Counted from the first letter of the stretch, positions 1,843 to 17,506 are shown. The stretch is 64,000 nt of DNA from Candidatus Pacebacteria bacterium CG10_big_fil_rev_8_21_14_0_10_44_54 (GCA_002772695.1 PFDI01000006.1:1214-65213); one strand, 5' to 3'. Made by a program: numbers and translations. The notes: a model not told the origin generated them from the sequence alone.

Positions 1843-2836
1843 CGCCAGTTTTATTGTCGGAGTCTGGCTAGGTCCAAAACTTTCTATCCAACTTGATAAC
1901 TTTTCCTCTCCTGTGGTGACAGAAATAGTGATGCCAATCGAGCAACCATATCTGGCTTACAGCATCCCAACGCTACAGTCGAAGGTTATTGAACCAGTAC
2001 CTCAAATTGAGATTACAGAGCCAATTGCGACAGAAAGTGCTTTTGTAAGCTATCTAGTACGACTGCGATTTGGCAGTCGAAACATGACTGGACAACTAAA
2101 TGTGCCTAAAAAAATGACTACAAAGACTCCGATACTTCTCATGATACGCGGCTACGTCCCACCAGCCGCATATTCAACAGGTGTTGGTACCAAAAATGCT
2201 GCAGCGGTGTTTGCGTCCAACGGATATATCACTCTTGCTCCAGATTTTTTTGGGGTGGCAGGTAGCGATGAAGATTTGAGTGACATTTGGGAAGCTCGAT
2301 TTGAGAAGCCATTACTTATGGCACAGCTGTTGCGAAGCTTGCCGACATTTCAGGATGGAGAACGACCAGTCGGTATCTGGGCACACAGCAATGGTGGTCA
2401 AATTGCAGTAACAACACTCGAAATCCTACAACAACCAATTCCCACTACGCTCTGGGCACCAGTAACAGCTCCATTTCCATACTCTGTCCTATACTACAGC
2501 GACGAAGAAGAAGACGAAGGTCGTGCAGTACGTCTCTGGATTAATCAACTAGAATCTGAGTATGACTTGCGACAATTCTCGCTGCGACAATACATTTCTG
2601 CACTGACGGGCCCACTACAGATTCATCACGGACAACTGGACGAAGCCGCACCAAAAATTTGGAGTGATGAGTTTGTCGCTTTGCTTGATAAAAATCAAAT
2701 AAAATATACCTACCATCAATACCCGCAGGCAGATCACAACCTACGACCAAACTGGAATTTAGCCATACAAAGAGACCTAACCTTCTTTGCTCAAACACTC
2801 ACTAATCCAACAATTTCTTCTGATCTCCTTCTGTAA
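1802..2836 (+). CDS. membrane-anchored alpha/beta hydrolase (dienelactone hydrolase / S9 peptidase-like)
   Basis: N-terminal TM helix, then a hydrolase domain with nucleophile elbow WAHSNGG (GxSxG) and a C-terminal His region (QADHNL). Confidence 0.65.
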   Translation: MKILQALIIGMLLIASFIVGVWLGPKLSIQLDNFSSPVVTEIVMPIEQPYLAYSIPTLQSKVIEPVPQIEITEPIATESAFVSYLVRLRFGSRNMTGQLNVPKKMTTKTPILLMIRGYVPPAAYSTGVGTKNAAAVFASNGYITLAPDFFGVAGSDEDLSDIWEARFEKPLLMAQLLRSLPTFQDGERPVGIWAHSNGGQIAVTTLEILQQPIPTTLWAPVTAPFPYSVLYYSDEEEDEGRAVRLWINQLESEYDLRQFSLRQYISALTGPLQIHHGQLDEAAPKIWSDEFVALLDKNQIKYTYHQYPQADHNLRPNWNLAIQRDLTFFAQTLTNPTISSDLLL

Positions 2837-3911
2837 GCGAACCTTGAGTGACGGTTCTGACTGTATCTATTTTGCGCTCCAACTGTCTGTGTCTTGTACC
2901 CATTAATGCTTCGTAGTCATTGTGGAGTGTCGAAATTGAACGGCCATACTTTGCCAATTGTTCGCTAAATTTCCCCCACTCCGAGACAAATCCGTCGATG
3001 TGTTTTATCACTTCTTTGAGCTTGCCACCGATCATGAAGTTACGATAACTCTCTCGCACGGTTCTAGCTACAATAATAAATGAAAATGGAGACACAACTA
3101 TCACGCGCTGCTGCAGTGCTTCATCCAATACCTCTGGAAACTTTTGATTAAGAAAGGAAAAAACCATCTCATTTGGCACAAATAAGATAGCGTAATCGAG
3201 TGTATTACTATCTGGTTGAATATACTCGGCAACTTTCGAGATCTTCGCCCTAATGTTTGTACGCAGTTGTTTAATTAAAACCGTTTTTTCACTCGTACTT
3301 TTGCTTGATGCTAGCTTCTGAATATCGGCATAGGGAAACTTAACATCAACTGGCACTACCCGATCATTGGGTAATAACAGGGTAATATCCGGACGAGCAG
3401 TGCCCCCCACTTGCTTAGCTTGTCTTGCAAAATGTACACCTTCTATTAACCCGTTTACTCGTAGCAAATCCTCGATTATGCGCTCTCCCCACTCTCCTCG
3501 AGCTTGGTTATTTGACAACACTTTTGCCAACTGCTCAGTAGACTGCGCCAACTCGCTCGTAAGCTTGCGATTCTCGCTCAAGCTTGTGACTAATTCTGCA
3601 AACTTGTGTGATCTATCCTTTTCAAGACCTCGCAACTCATCTTGGCGTACTGCCAAATCTTTCTGTAGGCGAGTAACAAGCCCTTCAAGCATTTGTTGTT
3701 TATTGGCCAAATCAGTTTTTATCGCGTCACGATCTCCAGCTAACAATCGCTTGCTCTGCTCGGCTATTTTCTCGGCACTACGACCAAAAACTTCGTCGAC
3801 TAGCTTGGTCATGTCACTATCAGATTGCTTGGGCAACAACTGACGCAAAAAGAAATACAAGAATGCAAAACCAGCTACAATAACAAGTAAAATTACAATT
3901 TCAAAATCCAT
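2802..3911 (-). CDS. rmuC: DNA recombination protein RmuC
   Basis: 369 aa. N-terminal TM helix, a long coiled-coil segment, and a C-terminal RmuC nuclease-like domain (LLPNDRVVPVDVKFP...AILFVPNE...VIVVSPFSF). Confidence 0.8.
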   Translation of the reverse strand: MDFEIVILLVIVAGFAFLYFFLRQLLPKQSDSDMTKLVDEVFGRSAEKIAEQSKRLLAGDRDAIKTDLANKQQMLEGLVTRLQKDLAVRQDELRGLEKDRSHKFAELVTSLSENRKLTSELAQSTEQLAKVLSNNQARGEWGERIIEDLLRVNGLIEGVHFARQAKQVGGTARPDITLLLPNDRVVPVDVKFPYADIQKLASSKSTSEKTVLIKQLRTNIRAKISKVAEYIQPDSNTLDYAILFVPNEMVFSFLNQKFPEVLDEALQQRVIVVSPFSFIIVARTVRESYRNFMIGGKLKEVIKHIDGFVSEWGKFSEQLAKYGRSISTLHNDYEALMGTRHRQLERKIDTVRTVTQGSLTEGDQKKLLD

Positions 3912-3937
3912 AACTGCAAGCTAGTATACTAAACTCA

Positions 3938-4333
3938 GTGCAAAAAGCTCCCTCAAGATTACAACAGCCAAAACAATTTAAAAAATCTGCCTACCTCAAA
4001 ACACTTCCCTTTGGATTATTTAGTCTTGTAGGTCTAGGAGGGCTTTACTACCTGCTCACAAACATTTCTCCCCAACAAATTGCACATGTGCCACTACCAA
4101 ACATGTACGGTCCATTTCTTCTACTTATTTTTCTAAGTATTTTTTTTCTACTTGGATATGCGCTCAATAATACTCGCAGAGGCTTTGTTGCTGCGAGTAG
4201 CATTTCTTTACTTATTTTTTTACATTTGCAACATATTGTAATCAACAAATACGTGGTTGGGGCAATCGCTATTTTATTTCTGATCACTGAAGTTTTAGCC
4301 AAACGTACGCATCGGGAGCAAAAAGTGACATAA
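3938..4333 (+). CDS. hypothetical small membrane protein (3-4 TM)
   Basis: 131-aa ORF with hydrophobic segments and no recognisable motifs. It lies in an otherwise empty gap between rmuC and the TrpR-like gene. Confidence 0.4.
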   Translation: MQKAPSRLQQPKQFKKSAYLKTLPFGLFSLVGLGGLYYLLTNISPQQIAHVPLPNMYGPFLLLIFLSIFFLLGYALNNTRRGFVAASSISLLIFLHLQHIVINKYVVGAIAILFLITEVLAKRTHREQKVT

Positions 4334-4354
4334 TATGATAGACTACTGCCTGGT

Positions 4355-4699
4355 ATGAAGCAGAAAAAGCAAATACAGCCAAATTTTTTCGAACTACAGC
4401 TTGCAGGCACGCTAGCAGATATTCATGGCGCCGAAAAGATGCTTGTTTTCCTGCGAGCCTTTTTATCCAAAAATGAATTGGCACAGCTGGGTACGCGCCT
4501 CGCCATTCACGCAGAGCTGGAAGCCGGGCAATCATACGAACAGATTCAAAAAAAACTTGGTGTTTCAAGCGCAACAATATCGCTCGCTTCGCAACAACAA
4601 AAAAACAGCGCAATGAAAATGGCGCTGCAGCTACTTGCGCTTGACTCTTGGGCACGAGAAAAAGCAGAAAAAATTCGCCGCTACCTGCCTTTTCTCTAA
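4355..4699 (+). CDS. TrpR-related YerC/YecD-family HTH protein
   Basis: 114 aa. LSKNELAQLGTRLAIHAELEAGQSYEQIQKKLGVSSATISLAS matches the Trp-repressor-like HTH of the YerC/YecD family. Confidence 0.6.
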   Translation: MKQKKQIQPNFFELQLAGTLADIHGAEKMLVFLRAFLSKNELAQLGTRLAIHAELEAGQSYEQIQKKLGVSSATISLASQQQKNSAMKMALQLLALDSWAREKAEKIRRYLPFL

Positions 4700-4732
4700 T
4701 TTTCACTTATACTGGATACTAATAAAAAAACT

Positions 4733-6154
4733 ATGTCCGAAACGTACTACGTAACGACCGCTATCCCCTATATCAATGCCAAACCACATATTGGTCATGT
4801 TCTTGAGTGGTTCCAGGCAGATACACTAGCCCGCTATCACCGCTTATTAGGCAAAGACGTTGCCTTCACCAGTGGAACCGATGAAAATAGCCTCAAAAAT
4901 GTTCAAGCAGCAGAAAAAGCTGGGGTGGACGTACAGCATTGGCTTGACGAATACGCCAAAATTTTCCAAGATGCATTTGCTTATTTTGGCATAGAGCTTA
5001 CACACTTTCGTCGTGGCAGTGATCAAAATCGACACTGGCCAGGCGTACAAAAGCTTTGGCAACGCTGCGCGGACAATGGCGATATTTATAAAAAAACCTA
5101 TACGGGCCTCTACTGCGTAGGTTGCGAAAGTTTTTATACCAAAGAAGACTTGACAGAAGCTGGAGAGTGTCCTGAACACCTCACGAAACCAGAAAAAATC
5201 ACCGAGAAAAACTACTTTTTTCGTCTAACAAAATACCAAGACAAAATCCTCAGACTCTTCAATTCTGGAGAACACGAGATAGTTTCACAGCAATACAAAA
5301 ATGAAATGTTGCGATTTATCGAACGGGGCTTAGAAGATTTCAGCATCTCACGCTCGAGCACGCGAGCTCGTGGCATTGGCGTACCTGTGCCCGGTGATAA
5401 CTCGCAAGTCATGTATGTTTGGTTTGATGCGCTTGCAATTTATATTACAGCACTTGGCTGGGGAAGCGACGAAAGTGACTTCAAGAAATACTGGCCCTCG
5501 GCAGTGCAGGTGATTGGTAAAGGCATAAACAGATTTCACTCTATTTACTGGATTGGCATGCTTCTCTCGGCTAAACTTTCATTACCAAAAGTAACATTTG
5601 TTCATGGATATTTGACAGTAAGTGGTCAGAAAATGAGCAAATCACTTGGCAATGTACTTGATCCTTTTAAATTAGTAGAAGAATTTGGTCTTGAACCAAT
5701 ACGACACTACTTGCTGAGATATGTTCCTACGCACGCTGATGGTGATTTCTCTAGAGAAAAATTTGCCGAAACCTACACGGCCGACCTTGCCAACGGTATC
5801 GGCAATCTCTGCTCGCGAATTGCGAAGCTCAGTGAAAAATCTGAAATTTCAGGTGGAAAAACTCCTAGTGAGTTTGATCCGACATATGTCTCTGCTTTTA
5901 CAAATTTCGAGATCTCAGTCGCTTCAGAGTGGATACAAAACCAAATTCGCAATCTAGACGGCTTCCTCAGTGACCAAAAGCCTTGGAAAAAAGATACTGC
6001 AGAACGACATGAAATCCTAACTGTGGCAGTAGCACGTCTATTAAGCATTGGGTACCATCTTCAACCACTTTTACCAAAAACAGCCGAAAAAATTATCAAT
6101 CATTTCACCCAACCAAAAATTGCAGCAATCTCACCACTTTTCCCTCGGAAGTAA
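4733..6154 (+). CDS. metG: methionyl-tRNA synthetase, short form without a C-terminal tRNA-binding domain
   Basis: HIGH motif (PYINAKPHIGHVLE), zinc-knuckle Cys (CVGCESF...CPEH), KMSKS motif (QKMSKSLGNV). 473 aa. Confidence 0.95.
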   Translation: MSETYYVTTAIPYINAKPHIGHVLEWFQADTLARYHRLLGKDVAFTSGTDENSLKNVQAAEKAGVDVQHWLDEYAKIFQDAFAYFGIELTHFRRGSDQNRHWPGVQKLWQRCADNGDIYKKTYTGLYCVGCESFYTKEDLTEAGECPEHLTKPEKITEKNYFFRLTKYQDKILRLFNSGEHEIVSQQYKNEMLRFIERGLEDFSISRSSTRARGIGVPVPGDNSQVMYVWFDALAIYITALGWGSDESDFKKYWPSAVQVIGKGINRFHSIYWIGMLLSAKLSLPKVTFVHGYLTVSGQKMSKSLGNVLDPFKLVEEFGLEPIRHYLLRYVPTHADGDFSREKFAETYTADLANGIGNLCSRIAKLSEKSEISGGKTPSEFDPTYVSAFTNFEISVASEWIQNQIRNLDGFLSDQKPWKKDTAERHEILTVAVARLLSIGYHLQPLLPKTAEKIINHFTQPKIAAISPLFPRK

Positions 6155-6160
6155 TTTTGC

Positions 6161-6958
6161 ATGATTATTGACACACACTGCCATTATAATCTTGAACCGC
6201 TTTTTTCATCATGGCAAACACACTGGAATAAGGCACAAACCGCGGGTGTATTGGCGACCATAATTGTTGGCACAAATCTCGAATCTAGCAACATAGCTTA
6301 CAAGCTTGCCAAAGATAACAAAGCTTTTTTTGCAACTATAGGCCTACATCCAAATCACTTTCAAACCATGAAGCAGCTCGAAGAAATAGCCAAACTAGAA
6401 CCGCTAATTGCAGACACTAGCGTGGTAGCAATCGGCGAAATTGGTCTTGACTTCTTTCGACTCACTGACTCGCCTAGCGATCAACAAATTAAAGAATTGC
6501 AAAAACAAGGCTTCCGCCTACAACTCGAGCTTGCCGCAAGATATAACCTTCCTGTCTGCCTACACGTACGTGATAAACAAGCCGAAGCATACTTTGCTGT
6601 TTTAGAAATCATAAAATCTGTCGAGCGAAACCAGCTGCCATTTATTTTGCACTGCATCTCTGGACCAACTGAATATATAGCAGAAGCTCTAACGCTCGGT
6701 GCGTATCTAGGCGTTGCGGCAAATAGCACCTATCCAAATAACCATGCAATTCGAAGCAGTCTTGCAAAGTCACCAAACAACCGAATTTTACTAGAAACAG
6801 ATGCGCCGTACTTGCCACCACAACCATATCGCGGTCAAGTTTGCGAGCCATGGATGATTACTGAAACTGCCAAAGCACTATTTTCTCAAAAAAAAATTTC
6901 TGCTAACCAGATACTAAACAACACGAAGGCAGCTTTTTTAGATAAAATAACCATATGA
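6161..6958 (+). CDS. tatD: TatD-family metal-dependent DNase/hydrolase
   Basis: MIIDTHCHYNLEP start, IGEIGLDF, LHVRD and LETDAPYL motifs of the TatD family. Confidence 0.9.
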   Translation: MIIDTHCHYNLEPLFSSWQTHWNKAQTAGVLATIIVGTNLESSNIAYKLAKDNKAFFATIGLHPNHFQTMKQLEEIAKLEPLIADTSVVAIGEIGLDFFRLTDSPSDQQIKELQKQGFRLQLELAARYNLPVCLHVRDKQAEAYFAVLEIIKSVERNQLPFILHCISGPTEYIAEALTLGAYLGVAANSTYPNNHAIRSSLAKSPNNRILLETDAPYLPPQPYRGQVCEPWMITETAKALFSQKKISANQILNNTKAAFLDKITI

Positions 6959-8466
6959 ATATTGGAGAAAAAATAGCACGCTACGTGACTAGACACCCGG
7001 TAAAAACACAGCGAGGACTAGAAATTTTGCCAGGATTTGTCTCGTGGTCACTTATTCTCTTTCCAGTCTGGGGGTCATTTGTCGTACCTGAGGTAGTTGC
7101 ATACTACGTTATCACGTTTAGTGTGTACTGGCTGTATCGCTCAATTACTATGGCAATTTTTTCAGTTTTGGCACACCTAAAGGTGCGAGCAGCTAGTAAG
7201 TTTGATTGGCTAGACAATCTCAAGCAACAACACCCAAAAACCTGGAGCACGATTCATCACTGCATCATTATACCCACCTATAAGGAGCCGCTTGAAACCC
7301 TGGTGCGTACCTTGGCCGCGCTACAAGCCCAAACATTTCCAAAAGAAAACCTACATATTGTTCTATCTTTTGAGGAGCGCGAAGGTGCTGCTGCAAGAAA
7401 AAAAGCCGCGGAACTTTCACAAAGATTTCACAAAACATTTGGCTCACTTCTCACCACATATCACCCCGACATTGCAGATGAAATAAAGGGCAAGTCTTCC
7501 AATACTGCTTGGGGGGCGAGGCAAGCAAAGAAATTGATCATCGATAAAAAAAAGATCTCACTAAACAATACTACAATCACAAGTGAGGACGCAGATGCTT
7601 TATTTCACCAATCATACTTCACCGCACTTACCCATGACTTCTTGACTCGAGAAGATCGCTACAACTGTATCTGGCAAGGTTCGATCGTATTTTATAACAA
7701 TATTTGGAGTGTTCCCGCTCCAATCCGCGTGCTCGCCTCACTTTTTTCTGTGATTCAAATGCATCTACTGATGCGGTCAGATCGATTGATTAATTTCTCT
7801 ACCTACTCGACTTCTTTTCGGCATATAGTTGATATCGATTTTTGGGATACCGACGTCATACCCGAAGACTATCGTCTCTTCTTTAAATCCTACTTTGCCA
7901 AGAAAGGTAAGTTTGAGGTTCACCCAATCTTTTTACCAATCTACTCTGACGCACCAGAATCACCTACACGCTGGCAAACGTACAAAAATCAGTACGAACA
8001 ACTCAAACGCTGGGCTTGGGGTGTCAGCGATGACGCCTATATTATCAAGCAGTACCTCACAACTCCAAACGTTCCATTTTGGGATAAATCTATTCGTGTT
8101 CTTAAAACAATAGAGGATCATTTTCTTTGGCCAGTCAATTGGTTTGCTATTACAGTATCCGCGTTCTTTCCCCCACTTCTTAATGAGGAGTTTAATAGAA
8201 CCGTAATTGGTAAAACACTTCCACAAGTTACCTCTGCCCTCCTGACCGCCTCACTCATCTCAATGTTCGCAGTCTTTATTATTGACGCAATAAATCGCCC
8301 ACCAAGACCCAAAAAGAGAAGATTTTTGTCAATTATCTTTCAGCCACTCGAGTTTTTGCTCTTACCCATCATTGGTTTTTTCTTTTCTGCCCTGCCTGGC
8401 ATTGATGCACACACCAGACTGATGCTTGGAAAATATTTAGAGTATAAGGTGACAGAAAAAGTTTAA
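6955..8466 (+). CDS. membrane-embedded family-2 glycosyltransferase (GT-A fold) with N- and C-terminal TM segments
   Basis: CIIIPTYKEPLETLVRTLAALQAQTFP is a GT2 nucleotide-sugar binding region. A DAD (DxD) motif is present. Flanking hydrophobic helices suggest a synthase-like membrane GT. Its ATG overlaps the tatD stop. Confidence 0.7.
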   Translation: MNIGEKIARYVTRHPVKTQRGLEILPGFVSWSLILFPVWGSFVVPEVVAYYVITFSVYWLYRSITMAIFSVLAHLKVRAASKFDWLDNLKQQHPKTWSTIHHCIIIPTYKEPLETLVRTLAALQAQTFPKENLHIVLSFEEREGAAARKKAAELSQRFHKTFGSLLTTYHPDIADEIKGKSSNTAWGARQAKKLIIDKKKISLNNTTITSEDADALFHQSYFTALTHDFLTREDRYNCIWQGSIVFYNNIWSVPAPIRVLASLFSVIQMHLLMRSDRLINFSTYSTSFRHIVDIDFWDTDVIPEDYRLFFKSYFAKKGKFEVHPIFLPIYSDAPESPTRWQTYKNQYEQLKRWAWGVSDDAYIIKQYLTTPNVPFWDKSIRVLKTIEDHFLWPVNWFAITVSAFFPPLLNEEFNRTVIGKTLPQVTSALLTASLISMFAVFIIDAINRPPRPKKRRFLSIIFQPLEFLLLPIIGFFFSALPGIDAHTRLMLGKYLEYKVTEKV

Positions 8467-10050
8467 ATGACTATACTGAGTGCACAAATGAAATTACTCT
8501 CAGAAATTCGCGAGCGCTTGCGTGAGCCAAAAAGCATCTTGTTTCTATTGCTCCTACTTCTTACCTTACTAAGAGTTCCTAATTTCTCAGAACCGTACTG
8601 GTATGGTGATGAGGGAATCTACCTTACAATTGGCAACGCCTTGCGTGAAGGTGGTACGCTCTACACCACTATTGTTGATCATAAAACGCCACTCATTTAC
8701 TACCTCGCTATGATTGTTGATAACCAACTACAGTTTCGTGTGCTGCTGTATGGCATGATGCTGCTCTCAACCGCTGCTTTCTTCTCGCTTTGTCAAACAT
8801 TGTTTTCTCGACTCAAACCTGCTGCATTTGCTACCCTACTCTTTGTTGTCTTTACTTCTCTGCCCTGGTTTGAAGGGCATATCCCCAACGGAGAACTATT
8901 TGTCATTTCATTTGTACTGTATGGAGCTTGGCTCTTTGTCAAAACACCTGTGGCACAGGCCTTCTTTTTACGAAAGACTGTCAAAACACAAAAAAACTTT
9001 CTGCTGTTTGCGGCTGGAGTCAGCTTTGGTCTTGCGCTGCTAACAAAAGTACCTGCCTTATTTGATATCATCGCCTTTGGCGCAGTTTTTGTTTTCTTGA
9101 TTTGGAGGGAGCATTTCCAACTTCTCACTACTCGACTAAAGGAAGCTTTTGTCTTTGTAGCAGGCTGCCTTATACCGCTTGTGCTCTCAATTGTATATTT
9201 TTATGCAATAGGCTCAGGCAGTGACTATCTTGATTTTGGCTTGCTCTATAACTTCAAGTATGCAGGATCATGGCAACTTGCATTTGCTAGTCCTGTTGTG
9301 CTTTTTCTCTTTAGTTTACCAGGAAAAACACTTGTTCTCGGCAGCATACTACTACTCATACTTGGTCTGAATAAAAAACTTTCAGCGGCCAGCCAGTTTT
9401 CACTCGCTTGGTTTTGGCTCTCATTATTTGCTAGCCTTCTTTCTAATCGACCATATCCGCATTATTTCTTGCAGGCAATTCCCCCCGCTGCAATTCTAGT
9501 AGTACTACTGATTATGCAAACAAGAAAAATTTCTTCAGCCTCCAATGCTATCAAGCTTACTTTGCTTGGTGGAAGCCTGAGTACGTTGCTTGCCGTGCTT
9601 GTTTTGCTGCATGTTGGACTTTATAGCACTGTCTCTTACTACACAAATTGGCTCCGTTACATGAGCAAGCAAACAAGCAGACAAGAGTACTATCAATCAT
9701 TTGACAAGCTAATGAGTGACAACTATGCGGCTGCAAAACTTATTATCACCACACAAGACAAACCAAGTCTGTTTATCTGGGGCACTAATCCCATGCTATA
9801 TGCGCTCACCAAAGCCGTGCCTCCTACTCGCTTTACAGTTTCATTTCATGTTGCTGATTTGGATGTATACAGTGAAACTATGTCCGATGTCTATTCCGCT
9901 CAGCCTGAATTCATTGTCGTAATGAACAACGAGTCGAGAAACCTACCTGGCCTCAATGCAATGCTTTTCGAAGCGTATACACTCAATGCACAGTACCAAC
10001 ACTTTACACTTTGGAAACGGTTATCGAACGCATCAAGCCTGCTATACTAG
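8467..10050 (+). CDS. GT-C family glycosyltransferase (ArnT/PMT_2-like; uses a polyprenyl-phosphate-sugar donor)
   Basis: 527 aa with more than 10 TM helices. The first-loop motif EPYWYGDEGIYLTIGNAL corresponds to the conserved DE/acidic motif of ArnT/PMT-type GT-C enzymes. Confidence 0.7.
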   Translation: MTILSAQMKLLSEIRERLREPKSILFLLLLLLTLLRVPNFSEPYWYGDEGIYLTIGNALREGGTLYTTIVDHKTPLIYYLAMIVDNQLQFRVLLYGMMLLSTAAFFSLCQTLFSRLKPAAFATLLFVVFTSLPWFEGHIPNGELFVISFVLYGAWLFVKTPVAQAFFLRKTVKTQKNFLLFAAGVSFGLALLTKVPALFDIIAFGAVFVFLIWREHFQLLTTRLKEAFVFVAGCLIPLVLSIVYFYAIGSGSDYLDFGLLYNFKYAGSWQLAFASPVVLFLFSLPGKTLVLGSILLLILGLNKKLSAASQFSLAWFWLSLFASLLSNRPYPHYFLQAIPPAAILVVLLIMQTRKISSASNAIKLTLLGGSLSTLLAVLVLLHVGLYSTVSYYTNWLRYMSKQTSRQEYYQSFDKLMSDNYAAAKLIITTQDKPSLFIWGTNPMLYALTKAVPPTRFTVSFHVADLDVYSETMSDVYSAQPEFIVVMNNESRNLPGLNAMLFEAYTLNAQYQHFTLWKRLSNASSLLY

Positions 10051-10056
10051 TGCGGT

Positions 10057-10389
10057 ATGGCATATTTGCAACAATTTCGCACACCACTAATCGGTAATAT
10101 TATCATCATTCTTATTCAAGTCAGCCTGACTGTTGTAGCCTTAAAAACCATACAGCCAGTTGTTCCACTTCTAAACAATCAGCAGCTGGCAAACAACACG
10201 CTGTTGCCAAAAGCTTGGCTGACAGTTATTCCTACACTCTCACTCTTTTTTAGCCTCTGTAGCCTTTCACTCATGGTTTTTTGTCACAGCTTGAACAAAA
10301 CAGTTTTACATTTATTTGCTTGGACCAGCACAGCATTTAATGGCATTTTATTACTCGCGCTCACTCGCATCATTATGCTTGTCAGGTAA
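10057..10389 (+). CDS. small 3-4 TM membrane protein, possibly a GtrA-like flippase accessory
   Basis: 110-aa hydrophobic ORF embedded in the glycosyltransferase cluster. The GtrA assignment rests on size, topology and context only. Confidence 0.4.
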   Translation: MAYLQQFRTPLIGNIIIILIQVSLTVVALKTIQPVVPLLNNQQLANNTLLPKAWLTVIPTLSLFFSLCSLSLMVFCHSLNKTVLHLFAWTSTAFNGILLLALTRIIMLVR

Positions 10390-10394
10390 TACAT

Positions 10395-11456
10395 ATGCTC
10401 GCATTTTTTCTTAGTTTTTTGTTTGCTTTTCTTCTAGCACCAGTTGTAATTCGGCTCTATAAAAGACAAGGTTGGCTCGATGATCCTGCGCACAATACCC
10501 ATGTGAAAAAAACTCATACAACAGCAGTGCCACGCGGAGGTGGTTTGGTTATTTTTTTTGCCGTGCTAGCTTGTAGTCTACTTTTCTTACAGTTTGATCA
10601 ATACTTACTCGCTATCCTGACTGGAGCTCTCCTGCTCACTATAATCGGCTTCTTGGATGATATACTCGACCTTCATCCCTTTCCTCGTTTAGCGATAAAC
10701 GGCCTCGCAGCCTTAATCGTAGTTGGTTCTGGTATTGGTATAGCCTATATCAGCAATCCTTTTAGCTCTGGCGTACTCATGCTTGATCAACCGAGACTAA
10801 CGCTCTCATTCTTGGGTGAAACAAGAAGTATTTGGGTTTTGGCAGATCTCTTTGCTGTTTTTTTTATCATTTGGAATAGCAATATCGTTAATTGGTCAAA
10901 AGGTGTCGATGGACAATTGCCGGCTTTTTCAATGGTAGCACTCGTGTTTGTTGGTCTGTTGTCTCTTCGATTTTTTGATGATCCAACTTCGTTCAACACT
11001 GCCCAGCTTGCTTTCATTGTTGCCGGAGCATTTGCAGGACTACTGCCGTGGAATTGGTTTCCCCAAAAAATTATGCCGGGGTACGGTGCCGGCTCTCTAG
11101 CTGGATTTTTCTTAGGAGTACTGGCTATTCTCTCTGGAGCAAAATTAGCAACGACACTTATGGTACTTGCTATTCCAACAGCTGATGCTGTGTTTACCAT
11201 CGTTCGCAGACTACATGCAGGAAAATCACCATTCTGGGGCGACAGAGGACATCTACATCATAAATTATTTGATACCTTCGGTTGGAGCAGACAAAAAATA
11301 GCAATATTTTATGGCATCTCGAGTGTAGCGCTTGGCTTCCTCTCGCTGTATTTGAATACTGTGGGAAAATTGCTTACAATAGCAATTACCATGAGCCTCG
11401 TGTTTGGTCTCTTATCTTGGATAAAGATCAAAAAAAGTACTCAGAAAAAAATATGA
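10395..11456 (+). CDS. polyprenyl-phosphate sugar-1-phosphate transferase of the WecA/TagO/MraY (GT4-PNPT) family, WecA-like
   Basis: Motifs GWLDDPAHNTHVKKTHTTAVPRGGG (WecA-type PRxGG), IGFLDDILDL (DDxxD) and 10-11 TM helices. Confidence 0.8.
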   Translation: MLAFFLSFLFAFLLAPVVIRLYKRQGWLDDPAHNTHVKKTHTTAVPRGGGLVIFFAVLACSLLFLQFDQYLLAILTGALLLTIIGFLDDILDLHPFPRLAINGLAALIVVGSGIGIAYISNPFSSGVLMLDQPRLTLSFLGETRSIWVLADLFAVFFIIWNSNIVNWSKGVDGQLPAFSMVALVFVGLLSLRFFDDPTSFNTAQLAFIVAGAFAGLLPWNWFPQKIMPGYGAGSLAGFFLGVLAILSGAKLATTLMVLAIPTADAVFTIVRRLHAGKSPFWGDRGHLHHKLFDTFGWSRQKIAIFYGISSVALGFLSLYLNTVGKLLTIAITMSLVFGLLSWIKIKKSTQKKI

Positions 11457-12421
11457 CTGCGTCGCTCCCCAAAACTCTTTTTCTGTTGTTAAAAACAGCC
11501 CGTCCTCGACAATGGGTAAAAAATCTCTCGTTATTCGCAGCTTTACTCTTTTCTGGTTTCTTGTTTTATAACCCTGTAGATGCTTTGCCGTACTTTTGGA
11601 CTGTAGCTCTGGCAACACTCACTTTTACGTTGGTTACTTCTGCTATTTACATAGCCAATGACCTCGTTGACAAAAAAGCTGATGCCCAACATCCATTTAA
11701 GCGAAAACGACCCATAGCGTCGGGAGAGCTTTCAACCGAAGTGGCAAAACTGGCTGTCTTCTCTTTACTTATTCTGGCGGGGTTTTTTTCACTTTATTTT
11801 TCACTTTTTTTCAAACTGCTGGTACTGCTGTATATTCTGCTACAAATTGGATACTCAAAAATATTTAAACATGTTCCAATTCTTGATGTTGCTTCAATTG
11901 CACTTGGGTTTCTAATTCGAATTTATGCGGGCTCTGTCGTGGTCAACCTACACATGAGTGTTTGGTTTTTGCTCACAGTTATCTCTGCTTCACTCTTTCT
12001 TGCGGTAGGGAAAAGACAAAGTGAGAGAACCCTACTAATGGGAAATTCTTCTGAATCAATTGGAAGTACTAGAAAAATCCTCAAACGATATAGCGAGCGC
12101 TTGCTGGATCAATACACTGCAATGTTTGCCACAGCAACTTGGCTGACATACGCTATCTTTACTTTTCAAAATGAAGTCATTGTTCCACAATCTGAATTTG
12201 CAACAATCTTTCGGCTGTTACCAAAAACACTTCACACCCAAAAATGGCTTATGATCTCTGTACCCTTTGTCATCTTTGGTGTCATGAGGTATTTGCAGCT
12301 TGTGTATGAAAAAAACCAAGGAGAATCTCCAGAGCGAGTGCTCTTTAATGACAAGCCCCTACTCATCACCGTTTTTCTTTTTGGCCTCAGCGTTATTTTT
12401 GCCTTGTACTTACTTGCATAA
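11453..12421 (+). CDS. UbiA-family prenyl-phosphate phosphoribosyltransferase (decaprenyl-phosphate 5-phosphoribosyltransferase/DPPR synthase-like)
   Basis: Start chosen at MTASLPK (ATGA overlap with the upstream stop at 11454-11456). The TARPRQWVKNL motif is the DPPR-synthase (Rv3806c-like) hallmark. YIANDLVDKKADAQHPFKRKRPIASG is the UbiA Asp-rich region. About 8 TM helices. Confidence 0.7.
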   Translation: MTASLPKTLFLLLKTARPRQWVKNLSLFAALLFSGFLFYNPVDALPYFWTVALATLTFTLVTSAIYIANDLVDKKADAQHPFKRKRPIASGELSTEVAKLAVFSLLILAGFFSLYFSLFFKLLVLLYILLQIGYSKIFKHVPILDVASIALGFLIRIYAGSVVVNLHMSVWFLLTVISASLFLAVGKRQSERTLLMGNSSESIGSTRKILKRYSERLLDQYTAMFATATWLTYAIFTFQNEVIVPQSEFATIFRLLPKTLHTQKWLMISVPFVIFGVMRYLQLVYEKNQGESPERVLFNDKPLLITVFLFGLSVIFALYLLA

Positions 12422-12424
12422 TTT

Positions 12425-13675
12425 ATGCAGCGATTTGTAGAGCGCTACTACAATCCCTTGTTGCTCGTACTCGTAGCAATCGCATTTTTCTCTCGCCTCT
12501 ATCGAATTCACATTCCAGAGCGGTATATGTTTGATGAGGTATATCACGCTGTGACAGCTCAACTCATTGCAAAAAATGATCCAAGAGCTTATGAATGGAC
12601 TGCCCAGTCTGATCAACCAAATACTGCAATTGATTGGCTGCATCCACCGGGCGCTAAATTATTTCAGGCTGGAAGCGTGTTGTTATTTGGCGAAACTAGT
12701 TTCGCTTGGCGAATTAGTTCTGTTGTATTTGGAACGCTCGTGGTTCTTACAGTGGGTTGGTTAACCCAAGCTTTGTTCGCAAATAAAGCACTCTCGCTGT
12801 TCGCCACACTCTTTGCAGTTTGTGACGGTTTACTACTTGTACAATCTCGTATCGCGATGAACGACATTCATGTCACGTTTTTTATATTGCAAACACTGCT
12901 ATGGTATTGGCTCTACCGAGAAAAAAAAGTTGTAAAGTATTTTATAGTCGCAATTGTAATGGCTGGTTGTGCTGTAGCAAGCAAGTGGTCGGGATTATTT
13001 GTATTTGGAGTGATCACAATTGTAGAACTTGCTCAGTGGCAGAAAGATCAAACTATACATCTGCTACAAAAAATTTCTCTATTACTACTACTTCCATTAG
13101 GAATATATCTGGCAAGCTACTCGCAAATGTGGCTACAGGGAAAATCACTTACCCACTTTATTCAACTTCACAAACAAATTTGGGCCTACCAAACAACTTT
13201 GACTGCGACTCACCCATACCAATCTACTCCTCTCCAGTGGTTCTTGAATATCAGACCTGTTTGGGTTTCTGTTGAGTACGGCAGCGAAACTAGGGCAGAC
13301 ATTTATGCTTTTGGTAATCCAGCATTATTTTTTTGGGGCATGTTTGCCATACTGTTTAGTGCTGTTTCAGTAGTACAGCTTCGAAAAAAAATCTCACCAG
13401 CGTTTATATTTTTATTCTTAGCTTATATTATAGTCTGGACCCCCTGGTTTCTCTCTCCTCGCGTTATGTTCTTTTATCACTACACACCAGCCGTCCCTTT
13501 ACTCTGCATCTTACTCGCCTACTGGCTGGTGAAAATAAACAAAAAATCTCTCACGATAACAATTTCCATCAGCATCATTCTTGCCAGTATTGTTTGGTTT
13601 CCTCATTGGACACAACTGCCTGTTTCAAACAAATTTGCTGATGATATTTACTTTTATTTTACAACGTGGAAATAA
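12425..13675 (+). CDS. GT-C family glycosyltransferase (PMT/GT39-like dolichyl/polyprenyl-phosphate-sugar:protein or glycan transferase)
   Basis: 416 aa, multi-TM. The first-loop MFDEVYHA motif (DE) matches the PMT family. Confidence 0.7.
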   Translation: MQRFVERYYNPLLLVLVAIAFFSRLYRIHIPERYMFDEVYHAVTAQLIAKNDPRAYEWTAQSDQPNTAIDWLHPPGAKLFQAGSVLLFGETSFAWRISSVVFGTLVVLTVGWLTQALFANKALSLFATLFAVCDGLLLVQSRIAMNDIHVTFFILQTLLWYWLYREKKVVKYFIVAIVMAGCAVASKWSGLFVFGVITIVELAQWQKDQTIHLLQKISLLLLLPLGIYLASYSQMWLQGKSLTHFIQLHKQIWAYQTTLTATHPYQSTPLQWFLNIRPVWVSVEYGSETRADIYAFGNPALFFWGMFAILFSAVSVVQLRKKISPAFIFLFLAYIIVWTPWFLSPRVMFFYHYTPAVPLLCILLAYWLVKINKKSLTITISISIILASIVWFPHWTQLPVSNKFADDIYFYFTTWK

Positions 13676-13677
13676 TC

Positions 13678-16600
13678 CTACTCCAAGAAAGTAAGTTCGC
13701 GAATTTCTCTCATTACTTCTTTAATCAGGTTTGATAGATCAGCAACTGCGGCATCGGTTAGCTCAAATGAGCGAGAAACAATCTTACCACTGGTTTTATG
13801 AGGCTCTACAAACTCAAAAACACCTTCGGTAACTTTTGGGTGAAAGGTCGGGTCAAGATCGGCTAATAGTTTATAAAAAAGTAACTGACGCTTGTATGGT
13901 CCACGAATACTTTCCGATAGTGATTGTTCTCTCTCAGACAGCTCTGCGGCTTGTGTCTTGCCTTCGATATCATTGTGACTACGCTGCTTACCTGTTTTGT
14001 AATCAATAACCCGGACAGTATTTTTTGATTTATCCACCCAATCAACTCGATCAACTCTACCACTTAACGCAATGCCATCGAGCATCGTAGTCGAAAATCC
14101 AGAACCAAAAAATCGTTCAATAAAAACAGGCTGCGCAGAGAATCGTTCGGCATTTTGGTAGTATGCCTCGAGTAAGTTTTTGCCATACAATGCTCTCGTT
14201 TCTAACTCATCTTTGCTCAACAACTCACGCTCCAATGCTCTGGTAAAAACTTGTTGTGCGCTCGACAAACTTGGCAAACTGTCTGACTCAAGGATACTGC
14301 GAAAAACAAATTCCAACGCCTTGTGTACTGCCGAGCCGAACGCCATTGGTGCGGGTTTTGCCTGAGGCAAACGAAGCAACACATCTTCGAGAAATTCTTT
14401 TGGATCTCGCAAGTATTTGTTGAGTGCTGTTACTGAAAGCCGAAAATCAGTAAGTAAACATGCGATGTACTCCCTCTCTGATGAAGAGTACTTGGCAGTA
14501 AATTGCGACATGACACTTGTTTCCAAAAACTGTTGTTGTTCAAATGTATCTATTTCCTGACTTACTTTTGTTTCAGAAAGTGAGATCATCTCACTAAAAA
14601 ACTGCGAAGGCAGTAAATATTTCTGCCTTCCTGACTGTATTGCTGTTTGAGAATAGCTTGCTACAAACTCCTTTTTTGCTCGAGTGAGTGCAACATAAAA
14701 TAATCTGCGATCCTCTGCCAGCTGCTCGTGTTTGTCTGTGGCTGAAAATTGCAGAACTGCCTCTGGTAATACCAATAAACTTGGTTTTCGCACGTTTCCC
14801 CAAACTCCATCAATGCAATTTGTAAGAAACACATACTCCCATTCTCGTCCCTTGGCTTTGTGTGCAGTGGTTACATCAATCGCATCTGTATTTGTTTGTA
14901 AATACTCTGCTTCTAGACGAATTCCACGATCTTGCATGATTGCAACAGCTCTCAAAAACGCCTCTAAACCAAAAGAGTGGTCGTTGTAGCTGAGCTGTTT
15001 AACAGTGTTGGTTAGTGCCTGAATTTCTGCAAGAAAGGTAAATTTTTCTGGCTGTTCTAGCAACCAAACTAGGTATCCAGACTCATGTAATATCTTGGTA
15101 AACCAATCTGGAAATGGCTCTTGTTGTTCGGTAACCCCCCAAAGCTTCAGCTTGGCAACAAAACGTACAATTGGATCATCACTCGACAGCTCGGTCGATT
15201 CTTCTATTAATTCAAACAGTGAAACTCCTTGTTTGCTCGCTTGTCGACCAAGCGTCCAGAGATGCACTCGAGAAATACCGAGCCAAGCAGCTCCTAGCAC
15301 TGCAAATAAATCATAACCTGCCTCGCCACCTCGCAGCTCAAATATAGTCTGCAACAGTTTTATCAATCCCAAAATATGTGGTTTGTCCAATACGCTTGTG
15401 CCCCCCGAAACAGTGCAGGCAATTCCTTGTGCCAAAAGTGATTCCGCTACAGCAAACACTTCTTTATTAGTTCGGCACAAAACTACGATTTCCTGAGACG
15501 ATATACCGCTTGCGAGTAGGCTGCGTACCCGTCCAGCTAATGCCATGTGCTCCATCCAACTTGTTTCTGCTACAACAACACTTGCACCAGTCTTGAGTTT
15601 TGTTTCTGCCAGAAGCTTGGTGGTTAATCCATCATGCAAGAGGGATGGTAATGAATCGGGTAACCGAGTGTGGGAAGTAAGTGAAAACGCAGCATCATAA
15701 ATAGGCTGTGGACAACGATATCCAATCTTGAGCGTTACTACTCTGGCTTGTGGATACAATTCAAGAAAGCGGTAGGTATTCTCTAAAGAAGCTCCCTGAA
15801 ATCGATAGATAGCCTGATGTGGATCTCCAACCACAAATACATTGGCATCAGCACCCCAAAATGAGGTAAGGTACTCTACCAGTGAATTCTGGGCAGTGTT
15901 TGTGTCTTGGTACTCATCAACTAGCACGTACAAAAATCGCTCCTGACAGATACTCAGAAAATCTGGATTATCTGTAAATGATCTCAAGACAAAAAGAATC
16001 ATATCTTCATAATCGTAACGCTGTTGTTCTCTAAGAGCGTTTTCATATGCCACATATAATTCAAGCAACTCCTGGTTTTTTGCTCGACTGCGAATAAATT
16101 TAATCTGCTCTGCTTTGGTACTCGGCGTTTGCACCTCAGCAAAAGCAGTCTCAACAATTGTGGCAAAATCTGCTGGAGAAACCCCTTCGCGCTTGAGCTC
16201 GCCAATCGCTCTCATAACAGCTGACACATAGAGAAGTGGTTGGTTGAGGGGCTTGAGAATATCAAGCGGCATAGTTTCAAACAGCCTATGCAAAATTTCT
16301 GATCTCTCTAGTTCAGTCACCGGCTCACTCTCTTGGGCAATTGGAAAATACTCAGGATACTCTTTAATCAGAGAAGTACAAAAAGCGTGAAAAGTCGTAA
16401 TTGTCACTGAATACCCGACCGAACCGATCAAAGATACAAGACGAGATCGCATCTCACTGGCTGCAGCATCAGTAAAGGTAAGCGCCAAGATGCTCGATGC
16501 AGGTGTGTCAGTCTGCTGTAAAATCTGGGCAATACGCAAAGATAAAACTTGTGTCTTGCCCGTACCGGGGCCTGCCAACACCATCACGGGGCCATCGATG

Positions 16601-16704
16601 GTATCTACTGCAAGTTTTTGATCTGGATTGAGTTGTTTGTAAAATTCAAGAAATGATTTCTTTCCCCTCATATTTTCTTGCATCACTGCTCCAAGCATTG
16701 CCAT
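13678..16704 (-). CDS. UvrD/PcrA-type SF1 helicase fused to a C-terminal PD-(D/E)XK (Cas4/AddB-like) nuclease domain (AddA-like)
   Basis: Walker A LAGPGTGKTQVL, helicase motifs (DEYQDTN, VGDPHQAIYRFQGA, TAHKAKGREW). The C-terminal VIDYKTGK resembles the nuclease-domain motif. Confidence 0.85.
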   Translation of the reverse strand: MAMLGAVMQENMRGKKSFLEFYKQLNPDQKLAVDTIDGPVMVLAGPGTGKTQVLSLRIAQILQQTDTPASSILALTFTDAAASEMRSRLVSLIGSVGYSVTITTFHAFCTSLIKEYPEYFPIAQESEPVTELERSEILHRLFETMPLDILKPLNQPLLYVSAVMRAIGELKREGVSPADFATIVETAFAEVQTPSTKAEQIKFIRSRAKNQELLELYVAYENALREQQRYDYEDMILFVLRSFTDNPDFLSICQERFLYVLVDEYQDTNTAQNSLVEYLTSFWGADANVFVVGDPHQAIYRFQGASLENTYRFLELYPQARVVTLKIGYRCPQPIYDAAFSLTSHTRLPDSLPSLLHDGLTTKLLAETKLKTGASVVVAETSWMEHMALAGRVRSLLASGISSQEIVVLCRTNKEVFAVAESLLAQGIACTVSGGTSVLDKPHILGLIKLLQTIFELRGGEAGYDLFAVLGAAWLGISRVHLWTLGRQASKQGVSLFELIEESTELSSDDPIVRFVAKLKLWGVTEQQEPFPDWFTKILHESGYLVWLLEQPEKFTFLAEIQALTNTVKQLSYNDHSFGLEAFLRAVAIMQDRGIRLEAEYLQTNTDAIDVTTAHKAKGREWEYVFLTNCIDGVWGNVRKPSLLVLPEAVLQFSATDKHEQLAEDRRLFYVALTRAKKEFVASYSQTAIQSGRQKYLLPSQFFSEMISLSETKVSQEIDTFEQQQFLETSVMSQFTAKYSSSEREYIACLLTDFRLSVTALNKYLRDPKEFLEDVLLRLPQAKPAPMAFGSAVHKALEFVFRSILESDSLPSLSSAQQVFTRALERELLSKDELETRALYGKNLLEAYYQNAERFSAQPVFIERFFGSGFSTTMLDGIALSGRVDRVDWVDKSKNTVRVIDYKTGKQRSHNDIEGKTQAAELSEREQSLSESIRGPYKRQLLFYKLLADLDPTFHPKVTEGVFEFVEPHKTSGKIVSRSFELTDAAVADLSNLIKEVMREIRELTFLE

Positions 16705-17309
16705 AGCGCAACCGAGCCAAACGTTTTGTACGGTGACCAGGGGGCAATAATTTTTTGTATTTGTTCTTTGCTTGGTTTTTCTATTTTGTATAACTTAATA
16801 ATACCTTTGCGCAAACCCAAATCTCCAAATGAAAAAATATCCTGACGAAGTAGTGTAAACATCAAAAACATCTCCGCAGTCCAGCTACCTACACCCTTAA
16901 CTTTGGTCAGCTCAACTATTACTTCATCTTCTGAAAGTGAATCAAGAGAATTAAAGTCAACTTCATTATCTTGAAATTTCTGTGCTAGATCTTTGACATA
17001 CTTCACTTTTGCCCAAGAAAGTCCAATATTCCGCACTGAATGGTCTGCAGCCAACAAAATTTGTTTTGGAGTATACTCACCACCAAAAAATTGTTCGAAC
17101 TTTTTATAAATTGCTGATGCAGCTTTACCAGAAAGTTGCTGCCCCACTATTGCTCTGCAAAGAGCGACAAAGTAATCTGTTCCTGTCGTACGACTCTCGA
17201 CCCTCTCAAACCATTTGCCTAGATCAACTTTAAGCAACACCTCATAAATGATTGGGTCTACTTTTTTGAAGTGAACAAACACATGCTCGTAATCATTAGT
17301 TTTTGTCAT
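16683..17309 (-). CDS. HhH-GPD DNA glycosylase (3-methyladenine DNA glycosylase II, AlkA-like)
   Basis: HhH motif LTKVKGVGSWTAEMFLMF followed by a catalytic Asp region (FSFGDLGLRKG). Confidence 0.8.
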   Translation of the reverse strand: MTKTNDYEHVFVHFKKVDPIIYEVLLKVDLGKWFERVESRTTGTDYFVALCRAIVGQQLSGKAASAIYKKFEQFFGGEYTPKQILLAADHSVRNIGLSWAKVKYVKDLAQKFQDNEVDFNSLDSLSEDEVIVELTKVKGVGSWTAEMFLMFTLLRQDIFSFGDLGLRKGIIKLYKIEKPSKEQIQKIIAPWSPYKTFGSVALWQCLEQ

Positions 17310-17506
17310 TCAGATTTTATTTCCTGTTGCAGCCTACCAATTTGTCGAGACATGCGCTCACCTGCCTGTTTGAAATTGTCACGCAAAGGCGCATTGCTTG
17401 CAAACTGTGCTCGAGCCAGTTGGCGTCGTTTGGCAATAGCAGACTTGAGTCGAGATTCGAGCGCTTGGGCGCGTTGTTGGCCGAAAGACATAGTTTTCTT
17501 TTGCAT
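17306..17506 (-). CDS. hypothetical small basic coiled-coil protein (66 aa)
   Basis: Its stop overlaps the alkA-like start (ATGA at 17306-17309). It is R/Q/A-rich (MQKKTMSFGQQRAQALESRLKSAIAKRRQLARAQF...). Several alternative overlapping ORFs exist here, so the call is weak. Confidence 0.3.
   Translation of the reverse strand: MQKKTMSFGQQRAQALESRLKSAIAKRRQLARAQFASNAPLRDNFKQAGERMSRQIGRLQQEIKSE

Follow-up and report, generated by a model that had tools for sequence, protein, structure and literature searches.

A window of 64,000 nucleotides from a metagenome-assembled genome (MAG) of Candidatus Pacebacteria (GCA_002772695.1, PFDI01000006.1:1214-65213) carries six same-direction open reading frames (ORFs) in a row on the plus strand, at positions 6955-13675, hereafter called g1 to g6. 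On balance, we favour the view that these genes form a conserved operon for a cell-envelope glycan in Microgenomates-type members of the Candidate Phyla Radiation (CPR), built around extracytoplasmic pentofuranosylation. Most likely, it represents the CPR version of the published system that pairs a polyprenyl-phosphoribose synthase with a pentofuranose-transferring GT-C glycosyltransferase, to which a WecA-like primer enzyme and a synthase are added here. In that published system, as described by Kelly et al. (PNAS 2024, PMC11127046), a polyprenyl-phosphoribose synthase (PPPRS) homologous to Rv3806c makes undecaprenyl-phosphate-ribofuranose from phosphoribosyl pyrophosphate (PRPP), a flippase exports the lipid, and a GT-C adds the pentofuranose outside the membrane. 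An earlier note on the same DNA had attributed it to a CPR-like genome, which agrees with the origin of the window, and had proposed a lipid-linked pentose pathway for the cluster. The genes under consideration, together with the context gene upstream of g1, are as follows.

6955..8466 (+): g1, putative membrane-integrated processive GT2 synthase (hyaluronan/cellulose/chitin-synthase-like), 503 aa
8467..10050 (+): g2, putative GT-C fold glycosyltransferase with a C-terminal soluble alpha/beta domain, 527 aa
10057..10389 (+): g3, small membrane protein with three hydrophobic helices, no known family, 110 aa
10395..11456 (+): g4, predicted polyprenyl-phosphate sugar-1-phosphate transferase of the MraY/WecA superfamily, 353 aa
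11453..12421 (+): g5, predicted polyprenyl-phosphate 5-phosphoribosyltransferase (PPPRS/DPPRS family, UbiA fold), 322 aa
12425..13675 (+): g6, putative compact PMT-type GT-C glycosyltransferase without MIR domain, accessory member, 416 aa
6161..6958 (+): TatD-family metal-dependent hydrolase gene (PF01026), context gene upstream of g1

The ORF listing agrees with the six consecutive genes and the two ATGA overlaps, at 6955 and 11453, noticed before, with the precision that the first of them (6955-6958) joins the g1 start with the stop of a TatD-like gene located upstream and not counted among the six. The second (11453-11456) places the g5 start within the g4 stop, and the spacing at the other junctions of the cluster is 0, 6, 5 and 3 nt. 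Public gene callers predict identical genes in four independent assemblies, in all of which g5 starts at ATG 11453 and yields the 322-aa product; a TTG-extended ORF from 11282 was set aside.

The pentose donor would be made by g5, whose sequence identifies it as a true relative of the decaprenyl-phosphate phosphoribosyltransferase (DPPRS) Rv3806c, and which is very probably a PRPP:polyprenyl-phosphate phosphoribosyltransferase, as suggested by its conserved catalytic and substrate-binding residues. Its closeness to this clade was judged by the separation of hidden Markov model (HMM) scores and by residue conservation. The protein reaches 207.7 bits against NF008978, just above the cutoff of 207, 213.9 bits against NF008977 (below the cutoff of 234), 140 bits against NF008976 (below the cutoff of 474), and 135 bits against the fused HAD-UbiA model PRK08238, while the best model of the other UbiA clades (archaeal prenyltransferase, 4-hydroxybenzoate, heme O, MqnP, chlorophyll synthase) gives at most 44 bits. 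Searching the PDB at E<=0.01 returned two matches, 8j8j (Rv3806c, E=3e-32) and 8j8k, both of them decaprenyl-phosphate phosphoribosyltransferases, and no other UbiA structure passed E=0.01. The DPPR-synthase-like assignment of the earlier note is thus supported by HMM scores, by the structure match and by the residues considered below. It also coincides with public annotation, since the NCBI record of the identical protein already bears the name decaprenyl-phosphate phosphoribosyltransferase.

The cryo-EM study of Rv3806c named the ligands of PRPP and decaprenyl phosphate, and reported that other UbiA enzymes do not share the phosphoribose sites (PMC10994848). Residues 17-242 of Rv3806c were therefore aligned with g5 and 80 orthologs (81 sequences), and 15 positions were compared: R22, K28, Y70, N73, D77, K87, R90, Q135, Y138, K143, Y157, K191, K208 and those of the NDxxDxxxD motif. 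With an overall identity of 33%, the g5 of the window is identical to Rv3806c at 13 of these 15 substrate-binding and motif positions. R22, K28, Y70, N73, D74, D77, D81, K87, R90, Y138, K143 and K191 are identical in all 81 sequences, and Q135 in 79 of them; Y157 is replaced by Phe in all g5 sequences aligned, a substitution that also occurs in some mycobacteria (PMC10994848), and the K208 position is variable across orthologs. The RPRQWVKN-type motif pointed out in the earlier note is present in g5 as LKTARPRQWVKN, which aligns with VKAIRPRQWVKN of Rv3806c, and its match is functional rather than a chance resemblance because it contains the substrate-binding residues R22 and K28.

That g5 might be an ordinary UbiA prenyltransferase, of menaquinone, heme O or archaeal-lipid type, with a coincidental DPPR motif, would be in line with its general Pfam UbiA match and with the label '4-hydroxybenzoate polyprenyltransferase' given by JGI pipelines to many orthologs. 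A grouping with menaquinone or heme O enzymes, which the earlier note had named as the outcome that would speak against its proposal, was nevertheless not seen: the DPPRS models score 208-214 bits against 44 for the best non-DPPRS UbiA model, no other UbiA structure was matched in the PDB, and the ligands of the PRPP ribose, 5'-phosphate and pyrophosphate are kept in 81/81 sequences. This explanation is effectively refuted and deserves next to no credence.

The neighbouring g2 and g6 are the presumed users of the g5 product. For g2, neither a Pfam match nor a PDB sequence match was found, and some of its orthologs carry PF02366/PF13231. Its AlphaFold2 (AF2) model, with a predicted local distance difference test (pLDDT) score of 93.9, retrieves in Foldseek ArnT 5f15 as the best match (E=5e-7), followed by AglB, AftA 8if8 (E=1e-4), Pmt4, ALG3, PimE and Emb proteins, and the 20 top matches out of 20 have the GT-C fold (19 glycosyltransferases and the GPI-transamidase subunit U). 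To judge from this model, g2 is a GT-C fold glycosyltransferase, as its earlier description as ArnT/PMT-like implied. Its invariant YGDEGIY motif (D48 E49) lies just after the first helix; in GT-C enzymes, the catalytic acid sits after the first helix, in the first extracytoplasmic loop. In the case of g6, also described earlier as PMT-like, PMT PF02366 (E=5e-19), PMT_4TMC PF16192 (E=3e-18) and PMT_2 PF13231 (E=1e-9) are all matched above cutoff, and the motifs FDE and HPPGAK are conserved. Against the protein O-mannosyltransferase model NF058602, however, it reaches 87 bits for a cutoff of 800, so that its sequence makes it a PMT-fold relative, short of a demonstrated Pmt ortholog.

The other members of the cluster would provide the acceptor and possibly the export of the donor. 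The helices of g1, 2 at the N-terminus and about 3-4 at the C-terminus, surround a GT-A domain (AF2 model, pLDDT 82). Alignment of 23-53 orthologs gives a mean column identity of 77-78%, with the invariant motifs IPTYxEP, KGKSSN, SEDADA (DxD), IPEDYR (ED) and QLKRW (QxxRW), and with D212-A-D214, E304-D305 and Q349-x-x-R352-W353 as invariant positions. The set of D, DxD, ED and QxxRW motifs characterises processive membrane GT2 synthases. In Foldseek, the model is nearest to the Chlorella virus hyaluronan synthase (HAS) 7sp7 (E=5e-9), Xenopus XlHAS1 and the cellulose synthase BcsA, with E values from 5e-9 to 1e-7. The g1 of the window matches PF00535 below threshold (E=0.006), while its orthologs carry PF13632 and the JGI label "cellulose synthase/poly-beta-1,6-GlcNAc synthase-like". 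Motifs and model together indicate that g1 belongs to the processive membrane GT2 synthases of the BcsA/HAS/chitin synthase/NodC type, in agreement with its earlier reading as a GT2 synthase-like enzyme. PDB sequence and profile searches with g1, g2 and g3 gave nothing usable, their sole matches being repeat-protein or Fab artefacts.

The WecA-type assignment of g4 holds at the level of the family: it matches PF00953 (Glycos_transf_4) with E=1.6e-20 and 74 bits for a cutoff of 27, and scores 83 bits against the WecA model TIGR02380 (cutoff 326) versus 54 bits against MraY, both values being far under the equivalog cutoffs. The motifs DD, N..N..VDG and GDRGHLHH are conserved across 78 sequences. 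By sequence, g4 is a member of the WecA/MraY superfamily nearer to WecA. As to g3, the earlier note called it a GtrA-sized membrane protein, of which the size stands and a GtrA membership does not: four orthologs gave no Pfam match at E<=0.5, GtrA PF04138 included, and three hydrophobic segments are present where GtrA has four transmembrane helices. No meaningful PDB profile match was obtained either. An ORF homologous to g3 occupies this place in 67 of the 69 tabulated loci; in the alignment of g3 sequences, the loop QPxIPLFYSLA..QxL..K is conserved, and helix 3, the last one, bears an invariant Arg. We regard g3 as a candidate flippase or accessory subunit.

The linkage of these genes was followed by scanning one genome per species with the g5 alignment and two very specific peptide patterns, a procedure that retrieves close relatives only (57-86% identity). 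It yielded 80 loci, essentially all from Patescibacteria MAGs of Pacebacteria, Woesebacteria or Microgenomates type, in which neighbouring genes were found by searching six-frame ORFs with the window proteins. The prevailing order is methionyl-tRNA synthetase (MetRS)-TatD-g1-g2-g3-g4-g5-g6, followed by UvrD on the opposite strand, and g1-g2-g3-g4-g5 is kept in about 80 Microgenomates-type genomes. The genes g4 and g5 are adjacent in 79/80 loci, where they overlap by 4 nt in the median, and among the loci with enough upstream sequence (n=58), g1 is present in 56 and g2 in 57. By contrast, g6 lies directly 3' of g5 in 48/73 loci and not in the other 25; the constant GT-C partner of g5 is g2 rather than g6. 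In loci without g6, a GalU-like nucleotidyltransferase (PF00483; L063 11008-11889 and 13 other loci) or other genes follow g5. Besides, in five loci (L064, L065, L066, L072, L052) a 687-aa DUF2298 membrane protein (PF10060, E=3e-84) is encoded between g5 and the g6-like gene. It should also be mentioned that, from L008 to L083, dozens of MAG records showing this Patescibacteria-specific synteny are titled 'uncultured Pseudomonadales', while L029 is titled 'Vitreimonas sp.' and L013 'Limisphaerales bacterium'; these titles are probably taxonomy mislabels in public records.

Distant relatives, whose g5 is 44-46% identical to the window protein, came from an exhaustive representative search. In the divergent locus L089 (46% identity), TatD-g1-g2-g3-g4-g5 is retained between quite different flanks and without g6, and L091 retains a g2-like gene, g3, g4 and g5. 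Locus L090 has no g2 GT-C in the cluster and a Trans_reg_C regulator gene between g4 and g5; its WecA-like protein (8026-9985) is 504 aa long with an N-terminal extension of ~190 aa, and a Wzy_C protein is encoded downstream. From the gene content of these divergent relatives, g1-g5, with g2 as the constant GT-C, emerges as the functional core. In addition, an unrelated cluster in Candidatus Shapirobacteria (L087, 1431-10611, and L088) consists of a DPPRS-family gene (NF008978, 209 bits) followed by four PMT_2 GT-C genes and a methyltransferase, and is an independent case of PPPRS/GT-C gene linkage in CPR. There, a gene for a FAD-dependent oxidoreductase (NF005560, 374 bits), which could be a sugar-modifying (epimerising) partner, overlaps the DPPRS-family gene.

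When constraint is expressed as the median ratio of bit score to self score across loci, g1 (0.72), g4 (0.64) and g5 (0.62) rank highest, followed by g6 (0.42), g2 and TatD (both 0.39), MetRS and UvrD (both 0.37), and g3 (0.15). The position of g1 above the neighbouring methionyl-tRNA synthetase (0.72 vs 0.37; orthologs L005-L084) is unusually strong for a glycosyltransferase.

From the gene families, folds, residue conservation and synteny described above, we infer the flow of substrates, the acceptor, the identity of the sugar and the role of g3 as follows. At the cytoplasmic face, g5 would transfer 5-phosphoribose from PRPP onto polyprenyl phosphate, as its conserved residues suggest, and the phosphoribosyl lipid would then be dephosphorylated by an enzyme outside those identified. 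The donor would cross the membrane, possibly via g3 acting as exporter or as GT-C accessory, and the lipid-linked pentose would be used outside the membrane by g2 and, in most genomes, by g6 too. As acceptor, the most likely candidate is a glycan that g4 would start on polyprenyl phosphate, as a polyprenyl-PP-linked primer, and/or that g1 would polymerise and export, and the sugar transferred would most likely be ribofuranose, the default product. This pathway rests on the ligand conservation of g5, on its GT-C partners g2 and g6, on the lack of another donor synthase nearby, on gene linkage, on the constraint seen for g1, g4 and g5, and on published precedent. That the g5 product feeds the neighbouring GT-Cs appears fairly likely, whereas the chances that the sugar stays ribose are about even.

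What the neighbourhood lacks was surveyed through Pfam annotations over ~1450-61600 of the window and through clustering of those ORFs that had no assignment in the +/-10 kb around each of the 80 loci. In this survey, no DPM1/GtrB-type or other lipid-monosaccharide donor synthase was annotated in the ~60 kb of window or among recurrent neighbours, and the same is true of PRPP synthase. Neither DprE1 (FAD_binding_4/ALO oxidase) nor DprE2 (SDR) was found in either set, so that the remark of the earlier note on their absence from the window is borne out. Since a linked epimerase is missing throughout the set of about 80 genomes, ribofuranose is likelier than arabinofuranose. The earlier idea of a polyprenyl-phosphate-pentose donor feeding GT-Cs keeps its logic, which matches a pathway type since demonstrated (PMC11127046), with arabinose as the less likely sugar.

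A mycobacterium-like arabinose pathway could still be envisaged, in which the g5 product is epimerised by DprE1/DprE2-type enzymes encoded elsewhere while g2 and g6 build an arabinan-like polymer on a WecA-primed glycan. The homology of g5 with Rv3806c and the match of the g2 model to the arabinosyltransferase AftA (E=1e-4) fit this scheme, and so does the set of WecA-like enzyme, processive GT2, DPPRS and GT-C, which parallels arabinogalactan assembly (PMC11127046). Nevertheless, neither a FAD_binding_4/ALO oxidase nor an SDR was found in the window or among the recurrent neighbours of 80 genomes, whereas DprE1/E2 homologs are in-locus for all the arabinofuranose systems surveyed by Kelly et al. 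(PMC11127046), and ArnT fits the g2 structure better than AftA does. We thus consider an arabinose pathway rather unlikely.

Some points weigh against a ribofuranosylation operon as well. First, the cluster, the window and the recurrent neighbours include no 5'-phosphatase (HAD-PRP or PAP2) and no flippase of the MATE, GtrA or SMR families. Such absences hold at the level of the neighbourhood only, and genes for DprE1/E2, for an epimerase of the ORF13 type or for a mannose donor synthase of the Ppm1 type may lie elsewhere in the genomes. Second, the PMT-family enzymes characterised so far use, to our knowledge, polyprenyl-phosphate-mannose, and the donor specificity of a GT-C is not deducible from its sequence or fold. 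Third, the RmuC, MetRS and UvrD flanks are syntenic too, so that part of the gene-order conservation may reflect general collinearity.

The first point is what a retained 5-phosphate would explain. If the GT-Cs transferred phosphoribofuranose, giving an anionic, teichoic-acid-like glycan, no linked phosphatase would be expected, and it is consistent with this that none is fused to g5, the 150 best g5 relatives having no added phosphatase or other domain (all but two are 202-335 aa long), and that the 5'-phosphate-binding K28 and Y70 are kept. On the other hand, there is no known precedent for a GT-C using, or for the flipping of, a polyprenyl-phosphate-phosphosugar. Moreover, unlinked phosphatases can serve: a separate enzyme, Rv3807c, removes the 5'-phosphate in M. 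tuberculosis, and a phosphatase-dead ORF15 mutant still gave some ribofuranose (PMC11127046). Retention of the phosphate is accordingly judged very unlikely. The TatD-like protein was considered as the missing 5'-phosphatase for its translational coupling to g1; it scores as an ordinary YchF/TatD exonuclease-family protein and the metG-tatD linkage is generic, and such a role stays speculation.

The third point would suit the view that these genes are mere neighbours, g1 being an independent exopolysaccharide synthase, g4 a general WecA, g6 a protein O-mannosyltransferase supplied with polyprenyl-phosphate-mannose from elsewhere, and g5 making its product for another acceptor system. The MetRS, TatD, UvrD and RmuC flanks are equally syntenic, as expected if collinearity is general, g6 is often not directly after g5 (25/73 loci), and its architecture is that of a typical PMT. 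This view is however difficult to reconcile with the g4/g5 start-stop overlap kept in 79/80 loci, with the persistence of the five-gene core between different flanks in L089 and of at least g2-like, g3, g4 and g5 in L091, with the second, unrelated cluster type linking a DPPRS-family gene to GT-C genes, and with the lack of another lipid-sugar donor synthase in the window. Independent functions for the six genes are therefore deemed unlikely, and a single operon for pentofuranosylation is preferred.

This preferred reading can be extended to a doubtful, frankly speculative proposal, in which the g1-g5 core would make the principal, essential secondary cell-wall polymer of Microgenomatia. Such a minimal arabinogalactan-like polymer would be WecA-primed, synthase-extruded and, outside the cell, extended or decorated with (5-phospho)ribofuranose, with g3, as a new small-protein family, in the place of the known flippases and no need of a dedicated phosphatase; a decoration by 5-phosphoribofuranose would make it anionic and teichoic-acid-like.

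Regarding the surroundings of the cluster, a convergent UvrD-like helicase gene lies 2 nt past the end of g6, and among the remaining genes of the window are a ribosomal-protein superoperon and typical housekeeping genes. A promoter and terminator consensus scan of 2500-17500 gave 29 promoter-like matches versus 27 expected from shuffled sequence and 20 terminator-like matches versus 13±3.6, which is not clearly above expectation, and the operon limits therefore rest on spacing alone. Upstream, the TatD-like protein (6161-6958) reaches 197 bits against TIGR00010 for a cutoff of 206. Its gene is immediately 5' of g1 in 52/54 loci and also in the divergent L089 (4809-5627), where MetRS is relocated. 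This gene is translationally coupled to g1 and is at most a candidate member of the pathway. Further upstream of MetRS lie genes for a 131-aa membrane protein without family match (3938-4333, +), found at the same position in 48 loci, and for a TrpR/YerC-like protein of 114 aa (4355-4699, +), found at the same position in 22 loci; both may lie in the same transcription unit. Elsewhere in the window, a 749-aa protein (25258-27507, -) combines DegT/DnrJ/EryC1 aminotransferase and FemAB domains, and its gene overlaps the start of a Mur-ligase-family gene (27486-28961, -). This fusion is unusual and may bear on peptidoglycan cross-bridge or amino-sugar chemistry.

A full-text literature search linking CPR, Patescibacteria or Microgenomates with these enzymes turned up nothing relevant, and a further one led only to the study of Kelly et al. 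and the commentary on it. The name of g5 is already in NCBI; one feature that sets the cluster apart from known systems is that the gene for donor synthesis is physically joined with those for a WecA-like protein and a synthase resembling HAS/BcsA, in a highly conserved core operon. The CPR, or Patescibacteria, make up a large share of bacterial diversity, are mostly uncultured and have a little-known envelope, for which this operon offers a concrete and testable handle. Over about 80 species-level genomes, the conservation of its cytoplasmic enzymes exceeds that of methionyl-tRNA synthetase, which points to an essential surface polymer. If the proposed pathway is true, PRPP-derived lipid-linked pentofuranose glycosylation would extend from Actinobacteria and Proteobacteria to CPR, and ribofuranose would be predicted in the CPR envelope; in addition, g3 is nominated as a new family of small membrane proteins that would export the donor or assist the GT-Cs. 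In mycobacteria, enzymes of the Rv3806c type and the steps after them serve as drug targets, and because of this status the selective inhibition of CPR members could become testable.

Of the known systems, those of mycobacteria and of Citrobacter are the nearest to the cluster. The mycobacterial assembly of decaprenyl-phosphate-arabinose and arabinogalactan involves WecA, GlfT2, the UbiA enzyme Rv3806c, Rv3807c, DprE1/DprE2, Rv3789 and the AftA/Emb GT-Cs. The cluster resembles it in the 33% identity and the kept substrate ligands of g5 and, in parallel, in the presence of a WecA-type primer enzyme, a processive GT2, a presumed lipid-linked pentose donor and GT-C transferases. It differs in that DprE1/DprE2, a PAP2 phosphatase and a homolog of the GtrA-family Rv3789 were not found near it, in that g1 appears to be a membrane-channel synthase of the HAS/BcsA type, unlike GlfT2, and in that its GT-Cs are small (416-527 aa) and ArnT/PMT-like, unlike the Emb-like enzymes.

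In Citrobacter youngae O1/O2, the three components are the PPPRS-PRP ORF15, the MATE flippase ORF14 and the GT136 GT-C ORF12 (PMC11127046). As in that system, a UbiA-fold PPPRS homologous to Rv3806c is encoded beside one or several GT-C genes. Among solved structures, ArnT comes nearest to GT136 in sequence (PMC11127046), and the GT-C here, g2, is ArnT-like as well, at the level of the fold. Xylofuranose is made only with an ORF13-type epimerase in the locus and arabinofuranose only with DprE1/E2 in the locus, ribofuranose being made otherwise (PMC11127046); this framework predicts ribofuranose for the cluster, which has, like the Citrobacter system, no linked epimerase. Unlike ORF15, however, g5 consists of a UbiA domain alone and has no fused HAD phosphoribose-phosphatase domain, and the unclassified three-helix, 110-aa g3 is found in the cluster instead of a MATE flippase. 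The CPR genes also share one operon with those of a WecA-like protein and of a processive GT2 synthase, and constitute a class-wide conserved core, unlike the serotype-variable side-chain module of Citrobacter.

Pilin arabinosylation in Pseudomonas aeruginosa PA7/Pa5196 relies on a PPPRS, DprE1/E2 homologs and the GT-C TfpW (PMC11127046). It shares with the present case a PPPRS-family enzyme that would supply a surface-modifying GT-C outside Actinobacteria, but it is encoded in a pilin locus with epimerase genes, whereas neither pilin nor epimerase genes are near the CPR cluster. Finally, the GtrA/GtrB/GtrC and CsbB/GtcA/YfhO hexose systems follow the same logic as the one proposed here, in which a lipid-linked monosaccharide is synthesised on the inner side of the membrane, flipped across it, and taken as donor by a GT-C on the outer side. 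Their donor synthase is however a GT2 enzyme, GtrB or CsbB, acting on a UDP-sugar, while the GT2 of the cluster, g1, bears the QxxRW signature of processive synthases, unlike GtrB/CsbB, and the donor synthase is predicted to be a UbiA-fold enzyme using PRPP.

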